Made by a program: the position numbers and the translations under genes. A stretch of 64,000 bases of DNA, from the NCBI RefSeq assembly GCF_055900595.2, contig NZ_CM148325.1; one strand, written 5' to 3'. Shown here in pieces: positions 23,461 to 24,474 of this stretch. How positions within the stretch are numbered: position 1 is the first letter of the stretch; every line of letters starts with the position of its first letter. A model generated the notes under the pieces. The model was not told the DNA's origin and searched no databases. It was given only the letters and a program-made list of their open reading frames with translations.

Positions 23461-24474
23461 ATGAAGGTACTGGTTACCGGCGCCACCAGCGGCTTAGGTC
23501 GAAACGCGGTAGAGTTTTTATGCCAGAAAGGCATCAGCGTGCGTGCGACCGGTCGCAACGAGGCAATGGGTAAATTGCTGGAAAAAATGGGCGCAGAGTT
23601 TGTTCCAGCGGATCTGACCGAGCTGGTCTCATCACAAGCTAAAGTGATGCTCGCAGGCATTGATACGTTGTGGCACTGCTCCAGCTTTACCTCTCCGTGG
23701 GGGACACAACAGGCTTTCGATCTGGCTAACGTTCGCGCCACTCGCCGTCTGGGTGAATGGGCTGTCGCCTGGGGAGTACGTAACTTTATTCATATCTCTT
23801 CCCCCTCCCTGTACTTCGATTATCACCACCATCGCGATATTAAAGAAGATTTTCGCCCTCACCGCTTCGCTAACGAGTTTGCCCGCAGCAAGGCGGCCAG
23901 CGAAGAAGTGATCAATATGCTTTCGCAGGCGAATCCACAAACACGCTTTACTATTTTACGCCCACAAAGTCTGTTCGGGCCGCACGATAAAGTCTTTATT
24001 CCCCGTCTGGCGCATATGATGCACCACTACGGCAGCATTCTGTTACCACACGGCGGCAGTGCGCTGGTCGATATGACGTACTATGAAAATGCCGTGCACG
24101 CCATGTGGCTGGCAAGTCAGGAAGCCTGCGATAAGCTGCCTTCCGGGCGAGCATATAACATTACCAACGGCGAGCATCGCACTCTACGCAGCATCGTGCA
24201 AAAACTGATCGACGAGTTGAATATTGACTGTCGTATTCGTTCCGTCCCCTACCCGATGCTGGATATGATCGCCCGCAGCATGGAGCGTTTAGGCCGCAAG
24301 TCAGCAAAAGAGCCGCCGCTGACCCACTACGGCGTCTCCAAGTTGAATTTTGACTTTACGCTGGATATTACGCGTGCGCAGGAAGAGTTAGGTTATCAAC
24401 CAGTCCTCACCCTGGATGAAGGTATCGAGAAAACTGCCGCCTGGCTACGCGACCACGGAAAACTGCCGCGCTAA
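23461..24474 (+). CDS. ybjS: NAD-dependent epimerase/dehydratase-family protein YbjS
   Basis: 337 aa from [15 protein letters not shown] (Rossmann motif). Confidence 0.85.

Follow-up and report, generated by a model that had tools for sequence, protein, structure and literature searches.

The ybjS and amiD genes converge in the 64-kb stretch of DNA analysed here (referred to below as the window), and their 3′ ends overlap by 4 nt. On the plus strand, ybjS (23461-24474) encodes a 337-aa protein of the NAD-dependent epimerase/dehydratase family, as taken from the PGAP annotation of an identical genome and from the translation, and on the minus strand amiD (24471-25301) encodes a 276-aa N-acetylmuramoyl-L-alanine amidase according to both the ORF list and PGAP. 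The tetramer common to the two stop codons is CTAA at 24471-24474, on which the sequence, the ORFs and PGAP agree and which is identical in K-12: the TAA at 24472-24474 ends the plus-strand ORF that starts at 23398 or 23461, and the CTA at 24471-24473, which reads TAG on the minus strand, ends the minus-strand ORF 24471-25301. The start of amiD in turn overlaps the stop codon of the upstream ybjQ gene (25298-25621) by 4 nt. Just upstream of ybjQ-amiD, between ybjP and ybjQ, lies an ORF of 594 aa (25831-27615, minus strand; hypothetical protein in the annotation), with a weak pentapeptide-repeat match (PF13599, E 1e-6) under the Pfam cut-off; this ORF, which K-12 lacks, occurs in 1,125 of the 5,426 complete genomes of E. 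coli, for the most part with just ~81% identity, and looks like a variable accessory gene. Two further convergent pairs in the window have the same geometry. The gstB gene (52218-52844, plus strand; glutathione S-transferase, 208 aa) and the yliI gene (52841-53956, minus strand; PQQ-dependent aldose sugar dehydrogenase, 371 aa), both supported by the ORF list and PGAP, have in common a CTAA tetramer at 52841-52844 that contains the TAA of gstB and the TAG of yliI and is seen in the sequence, the ORFs, PGAP and K-12. The ybjX gene (11139-12095, plus strand; VirK/YbjX family, 318 aa as annotated here; annotation and translation) and the ybjD gene (12092-13750, minus strand; annotated as an ATP-dependent endonuclease with DUF2813, 552 aa; annotation, K-12 and translation) both end with TAA in a TTAA tetramer at 12092-12095, as found in the sequence, the annotation and K-12.

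E. coli Z0117EC0005 (NZ_CP098223.1) has a chromosome that matches the window at 100% identity, and CDS names and ends were taken from the PGAP annotation of that genome. When this annotation was overlaid on the whole window, 11 convergent junctions were found, three of which have a 4-nt overlap while the remaining eight have spacers of 32-345 nt. The original prediction had named two such pairs, ybjS/amiD and gstB/yliI; both were upheld by the ORFs, PGAP and K-12, but the count was too low, the pair ybjX/ybjD having been overlooked. The same three 4-nt overlaps are present in K-12 MG1655, which differs from the window at 0, 2 and 1 positions within 60 nt either side of the three junctions. Judged from two segments, the window belongs to an uncommon E. 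coli lineage, with identity of at least 99% in only 8 of about 5,424 complete genomes and of 95-99% (about 96%) in nearly all others. From the published total of 58 convergent overlaps in the E. coli genome (Lillo and Krakauer, 2007; PMC2174442), which counts overlaps of any length and is an upper bound, at most about 0.8 would be expected per 64 kb, and the rough Poisson probability of three in one window is about 0.05 for all 58 and <0.01 for the 4-nt class alone. Three overlaps are thus slightly more than expected for one window, but as the genome corresponds to roughly 72 windows of such size, this is unremarkable. Same-strand overlaps also occur in the window, of 4 nt at ybjQ/amiD (25298-25301), potH/potI and macA/macB, of 17 nt at ybjC/nfsA and of 1 nt each at artM/artQ and ybjI/ybjJ; these are the usual operon-internal couplings.

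All three convergent overlaps are of the YTAR tail-to-tail type, in which TAA or TAG stands on both strands and the central TA is common to both stop codons. Each is a convergent overlap of exactly 4 nt with one of the allowed tetramers (CTAA, CTAA and TTAA), and TGA is used at none of them. Lillo and Krakauer (2007; PMC2174442) named the four tetramers of this type, CTAA, TTAA, CTAG and TTAG, and reported that the lengths of convergent overlaps show a jump at 4 nt and that only 23 of 116 convergently overlapping E. coli genes (20%) have predicted rho-independent terminators; that paper also cites prior work on convergent overlaps by Fukuda, by Rogozin, and by Johnson and Chisholm. Four nucleotides is the shortest and commonest convergent overlap because the TA is common to the stop codons of both strands and a purine then suffices.

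The distribution of the overlaps was determined in other species using one genome per species. A search with Hcr, whose gene lies between two of the junctions, yielded 80 Enterobacteriaceae loci that cover both ybjX/ybjD and ybjS/amiD, and the orthologues of these four genes were located by tblastn, each alignment being extended to its stop codon. The alignments of the four products reach the last residues in 48-51 species. The ybjX/ybjD overlap of 4 nt was found in 46 of the 51 evaluable Enterobacteriaceae species, as TTAA in 23, CTAA in 16, TTAG in 4 and CTAG in 3, while the identity of YbjX to the window protein was 47-76% in the non-Escherichia loci and 93-98% in four Escherichia loci. The overlap is missing chiefly from four Kluyvera species, in which a 1.1-kb insertion separates both genes. 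At ybjS/amiD the 4-nt overlap is present in 25 of 48 species (Escherichia, Salmonella, most Citrobacter, Klebsiella and Atlantibacter) and all four tetramers were found among the overlapping orthologous junctions; other lineages have gaps of 0 (TAATTA), 2, 3, 7, 20-158 or about 605 nt, and TGA stops are restricted to loci without overlap. The gstB/yliI pair was compared through GstB homologues and the neighbouring genes on their contigs, where both proteins are likewise conserved to the C-terminus. S. bongori, C. koseri and C. freundii have the 4-nt overlap, and S. enterica has kept it although its yliI is fragmented into calls of 57, 52 and 51 aa (contig L088, 3124-3811); in S. bongori an intact yliI has the same 4-nt overlap with gstB. 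The two genes are separated by a 4-nt gap in E. fergusonii and abut with no gap in Cronobacter and Huaxiibacter, and in Intestinirhabdus yliI is absent. Between species the outer bases of the tetramer drift, and the central TA, which serves both stops, is fixed. Given this distribution over Enterobacteriaceae species, the overlap configuration is old and persistent but dispensable.

No intergenic DNA is left at the overlaps, so any terminators must sit inside the coding sequence of the partner gene. A search for hairpins with a U-tract behind them, run uniformly over all 11 convergent junctions, recovered canonical terminators at the non-overlapping ones (dacC, ybjH, macB/cspD, clpA and tRNA-Ser), which served as an internal control. 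Among the six overlapping genes terminator sites were obtained for two only, a strong one for ybjD and a weak one for amiD, and for ybjS, ybjX, gstB and yliI no hairpin with a U-tract was found up to about 100 nt from the stop codon. The amiD site lies inside ybjS, 17 nt past the amiD stop codon (24426-24453, minus strand), and consists of a 5-bp stem with an 8-nt loop (ΔG −6.7) and the tail AGUUUUCU. In a consensus scan the number of terminator-like sites was 4 versus 3.1 in shuffled sequence around ybjS/amiD and 5 versus 2.4 around gstB/yliI, both within about 1.5 sd, and 9 versus a shuffled mean of 3.4 (sd 1.9) around ybjX/ybjD, where one of the nine is at the junction. Covariation analysis, RNAalifold and flank permutation detected no conserved RNA structure at the junctions, and Rfam and tRNA scans of the window gave no match at any junction. 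Elsewhere in the window, Rfam matches were obtained to the sRNA RybB (44643-44721, plus strand) and to naRNA4 (31888-31968, minus strand) and ES036 (32925-32967, minus strand), the latter two in intergenic parts of the art gene cluster. In addition, two CRISPR repeat copies 60 nt apart were located at 4381-4468, between tRNA-Ser (4250-4337) and infA: Rfam gave a CRISPR-DR4 match at 4441-4468, and the 20 nt at 4389-4408 recur exactly, in direct orientation, at 4449-4468. With two repeats and one spacer, the site is a minimal remnant of an array, and the window holds no cas genes nearby.

The candidate intrinsic terminator of ybjD lies within the last codons of ybjX (12015-12067, minus strand) and is identical in K-12. 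It was picked up by the hairpin search as a 45-nt hairpin (12067-12023, ΔG −25.7 kcal/mol) that begins 24 nt past the ybjD stop codon and is followed by a 2-nt spacer and then CGUUUUUU, and it is the most stable terminator-like hairpin among all the convergent junctions of the window. Its U-run arises because it is the complement of the conserved Lys-Lys codons AAAAAA of ybjX. In 40 species 67.5% of cells were paired versus 68.4% in column shuffles, with no excess of compensatory changes, and RNAalifold returned no consensus hairpin; the pairing is mainly confined to Escherichia. Selection on an embedded ybjD terminator was therefore rejected, given the lack of covariation and a U-run that the Lys-Lys codons explain, and the site is plausibly an intrinsic terminator specific to the Escherichia lineage, without sign of selection. 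Directly over the stop codons, a 5-bp GC stem (CGCGG-TTAAT-CCGCG) spans the ybjX/ybjD tetramer in Escherichia. A conserved hairpin at this place was considered, as compensatory changes between Escherichia and Enterobacter were apparent by eye, and was ruled out by permutation: when the flanks were permuted among 44 distinct sequences the mean stem was 2.43 in the real pairs versus 2.36 (P 0.31), and stems of at least 4 bp spanning the tetramer were no more numerous than with species-permuted flanks (P 0.23). At gstB/yliI, a GTTAGC...GCTAAC inverted repeat spans the gstB stop codon, and a stable 14-bp hairpin is located inside yliI about 30 nt past that stop (52874-52918, plus strand), in a region with a fold z-score of −2.66. 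Lacking a U-tract, with arms that code for conserved YliI residues and with pairing that is uncompensated in Salmonella, the latter was set aside as a probable coding by-product.

Transcription across the junctions could be read from published K-12 data, with the strain of the window being divergent from K-12 (about 96% identity). Strand-specific RNA-seq across the junctions had been proposed as a check in the original prediction, and the K-12 data in effect supply it (PMC12288877, PMC7815308). The claim that the overlaps leave no space for intergenic terminators is borne out, since the stop codons overlap and there is zero intergenic DNA, and the claim of antisense read-through into the partner gene is corroborated at the orthologous K-12 loci by a list of excludons and by Rho termination regions. 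Absence of terminator space does not equal absence of termination, as the antisense transcripts are ended by Rho. Sharp transcript 3′ ends inside the coding regions, named in the original prediction as the observation that would speak against read-through, do not stand in its way, since the curated Term-seq list (PMC7815308) holds a 3′ end for none of the six genes, to which low expression may contribute. Adams et al. (2021; PMC7815308, supplementary file 2) defined Rho termination regions by DirectRNA-seq with and without bicyclomycin, and these regions, which have a resolution of a few hundred nucleotides, were combined with K-12 gene coordinates to obtain distances past the stop codons. Bicyclomycin-sensitive regions are present in four of the six directions, antisense to ybjS, amiD, yliI and ybjD, at 375-882 nt past the stops. 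The region antisense to ybjS is at K-12 906118(+), 375 nt past the amiD stop (score 4.3, p 4.9e-6); that antisense to amiD is at 905089(−), 651 nt past the ybjS stop (score 3.9, p 2.6e-10); that antisense to yliI is at 879406(−), 448 nt past the gstB stop (score 3.8, p 1.4e-6); and that antisense to ybjD is at 917246(−), 882 nt past the ybjX stop (score 15.9, p 7e-53). No Rho region is reported in PMC7815308 for the ybjD and yliI directions. Projected onto the window, the read-through paths up to the K-12 Rho regions would run at 24096-24470 on the minus strand for amiD into ybjS and, on the plus strand, at 24475-25125 for ybjS into amiD, at 52845-53292 for gstB into yliI and at 12096-12977 for ybjX into ybjD, the last projection assuming colinearity with K-12, where CDS lengths are equal. 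Over 600 nt of these paths the C/G ratio was 0.91-1.25, inside the window background of 0.76-1.31, so that a rut-like skew of C over G does not stand out and the presence of rut sites, at which Rho loads, is not backed separately by the sequence. The Rho regions could partly reflect antisense promoters inside genes instead of read-through; from its position, the antisense RNA most plausibly starts as a 3′ extension of a bona fide mRNA and not at an internal promoter. More than half of the Rho regions in the study of Adams et al. (51.5%) are antisense to genes (PMC7815308). Regions are also reported there antisense to deoR, dacC, mdfA, macB and ybjT, at K-12 882572(+), 881569(−), 884860(−), 920915(−) and 908096(+), respectively, and these adjoin convergent junctions with spacers, some of which have canonical terminators. 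Rho-limited antisense read-through is thus not peculiar to overlapping pairs.

The overlap of the transcripts themselves has been recorded for the same genes. Using ExcludonFinder on E. coli MG1655, Sanmartin et al. (2025; PMC12288877) listed 165 convergent pairs with overlapping transcript boundaries in at least 50% of 58 RNA-seq samples, and yliI-gstB, amiD-ybjS and ybjD-ybjX are all in their Table 1; mdfA-ybjH, a pair also from the window, is among their convergent pairs as well. Where coding sequences overlap, expression of both genes is almost enough by itself for a pair to pass the ExcludonFinder criterion. The convergent excludons could not be validated by p19 dsRNA capture, and excludon pairs showed higher synteny than other neighbours (PMC12288877).

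Taken together, these data make it very probable that the three junctions are ordinary YTAR overlaps that are mutationally persistent and largely neutral, with read-through antisense RNA that is ended by Rho. As to their origin, we infer that the reverse complement of a TAA or TAG stop codon begins with TA on the opposite strand, and that a converging ORF in the right frame would have its stop at precisely this point, provided that a purine follows. Once formed, such an overlap would tend to persist, the central TA serving both stops and the outer Y and R drifting between TAA and TAG. Each mRNA would then run on, past a junction with no intergenic terminator, as untranslated antisense RNA into the coding sequence of its partner, and Rho would end this RNA a few hundred nucleotides in, as seen in the published K-12 data for four of six directions; for ybjD, the candidate intrinsic terminator within the last ybjX codons may act instead. 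The 3′ overlap of the transcripts would be a by-product of the compact layout and would not necessitate a dedicated regulatory function. In the comparative data the 4-nt form lasts family-wide, the outer bases occur in all four forms and the surrounding RNA structure is not conserved, which is the expected look of a mutationally persistent, largely neutral arrangement.

Several other readings were weighed against this one. That the annotation is at fault, with one ORF of each pair not real or with its true end elsewhere, has practically no chance of being correct: no support for it was found, the stop codons are unambiguous, PGAP and the K-12 reference annotation agree, and all six proteins have full-length Enterobacteriaceae orthologues, the conserved C-termini of both partners excluding an artefact. 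A more serious proposal is that intrinsic terminators embedded in the partner coding sequence stop transcription near the junction so that little antisense RNA is made. The ybjD hairpin, with its ΔG of −25.7 and CGUUUUUU identical in K-12, is what such a site would look like, the ybjD direction is one for which no Rho region is reported (PMC7815308), and 20% of convergently overlapping E. coli genes do have predicted rho-independent terminators (PMC2174442). Yet a strong site exists for one of six genes, the amiD site is weak (ΔG −6.7) and the other four genes have none; the site counts at ybjS/amiD and gstB/yliI (4 and 5) are near those of shuffled sequence, and just one of the nine sites that make up the excess at ybjX/ybjD is at the junction. 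The ybjD hairpin moreover shows no covariation, is paired mainly in Escherichia and owes its U-run to the ybjX Lys-Lys codons, and Rho regions exist for four directions (PMC7815308), so that as an account of the three junctions embedded termination is a tentative and rather doubtful one. Termination driven by collision, a mechanism known from convergent pairs in E. coli (bioRxiv 10.1101/2022.10.23.513370), would have a hairpin at the overlap pause the RNA polymerases and head-on and trailing collisions release them, so that 3′ ends would be defined with neither Rho nor a U-tract. We regard this mechanism as highly improbable here. The Escherichia stem over the ybjX/ybjD tetramer and the inverted repeat over the gstB stop are in line with it, but stems at the junctions are no commoner than with permuted flanks (P 0.31 for mean length and 0.23 for count), termination is bicyclomycin-sensitive and takes place hundreds of nucleotides downstream, and the curated Term-seq list holds no 3′ ends for the six genes, although low expression could hide weak ends (PMC7815308). 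Collision is also reported to be efficient mainly in highly expressed pairs (bioRxiv 10.1101/2022.10.23.513370), and the six genes give low reads.

Finally, the pairs might be functional convergent excludons, in which the overlap is kept since 3′ antisense read-through represses the partner by interference or RNase III and makes expression mutually exclusive. The published K-12 excludome includes all three pairs and excludon pairs have higher synteny than other neighbours (PMC12288877), 46 of 51 species have kept the ybjX/ybjD overlap, and antisense reads at the 3′ part of ybjD are present even without bicyclomycin (299 in the 800-nt upstream window; PMC7815308). Against these points, membership in the excludome follows nearly automatically for overlapping coding sequences, dsRNA capture failed to validate convergent excludons (PMC12288877), no functional link is evident between the partners, the antisense RNA is curtailed by Rho with low read counts, no conserved RNA structure was found, and the overlap has repeatedly been lost with both genes kept, in E. 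fergusonii, Kluyvera, Raoultella, Lelliottia and Cronobacter. We therefore consider a functional excludon unlikely. From its species distribution, the very high retention at ybjX/ybjD could reflect selection for the overlap itself. A narrower form of this idea, that retention despite the divergence of YbjX points to selection for a Rho-gated antisense switch, with the same holding more weakly for amiD/ybjS and gstB/yliI, appears highly unlikely; were it true, induction of ybjX would cause read-through over the 3′ half of ybjD and lower the expression of a nuclease-like gene. For any regulatory effect of the overlaps, the overlap-less E. fergusonii, Kluyvera, Raoultella and Cronobacter would be natural controls. 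The three junctions matter little by themselves and are a clean local case of compact convergent E. coli genes that lack intergenic terminators and depend on Rho.

The excludon concept has its origin in Listeria, and in classical excludons a long antisense transcript has been demonstrated to affect the neighbouring gene reciprocally, whereas what has been recorded at the three junctions is overlap of the transcripts. The likeness to the convergent excludons of Sanmartin et al. is that the same three pairs have overlapping transcripts in most K-12 RNA-seq samples (PMC12288877). With bidirectional, or collision, terminators (Ju et al., 2019, as described in bioRxiv 10.1101/2022.10.23.513370) the three pairs have in common the convergent arrangement and the 3′-overlapping transcripts; by that description the elements of Ju et al. 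are intergenic and Rho-independent and have sharp 3′ ends, in contrast to the overlaps of the window, which have no intergenic DNA, no conserved hairpin and distal, Rho-sensitive termination. The bicyclomycin-sensitive regions antisense to ybjS, amiD, yliI and ybjD resemble the Rho-suppressed antisense transcription of Adams et al. (PMC7815308), with the difference that the RNA here would originate as an mRNA 3′ extension and not at a spurious intragenic promoter. The closest match is the class of Lillo and Krakauer (PMC2174442), with the same geometry and a similarly low use of rho-independent terminators (20% versus one or two of the six genes here). The arrangement is common and long described, and its transcriptional consequence is already known from K-12 for the same genes; there is nothing substantive that sets these overlaps apart from that class, of which the window just contains three examples.
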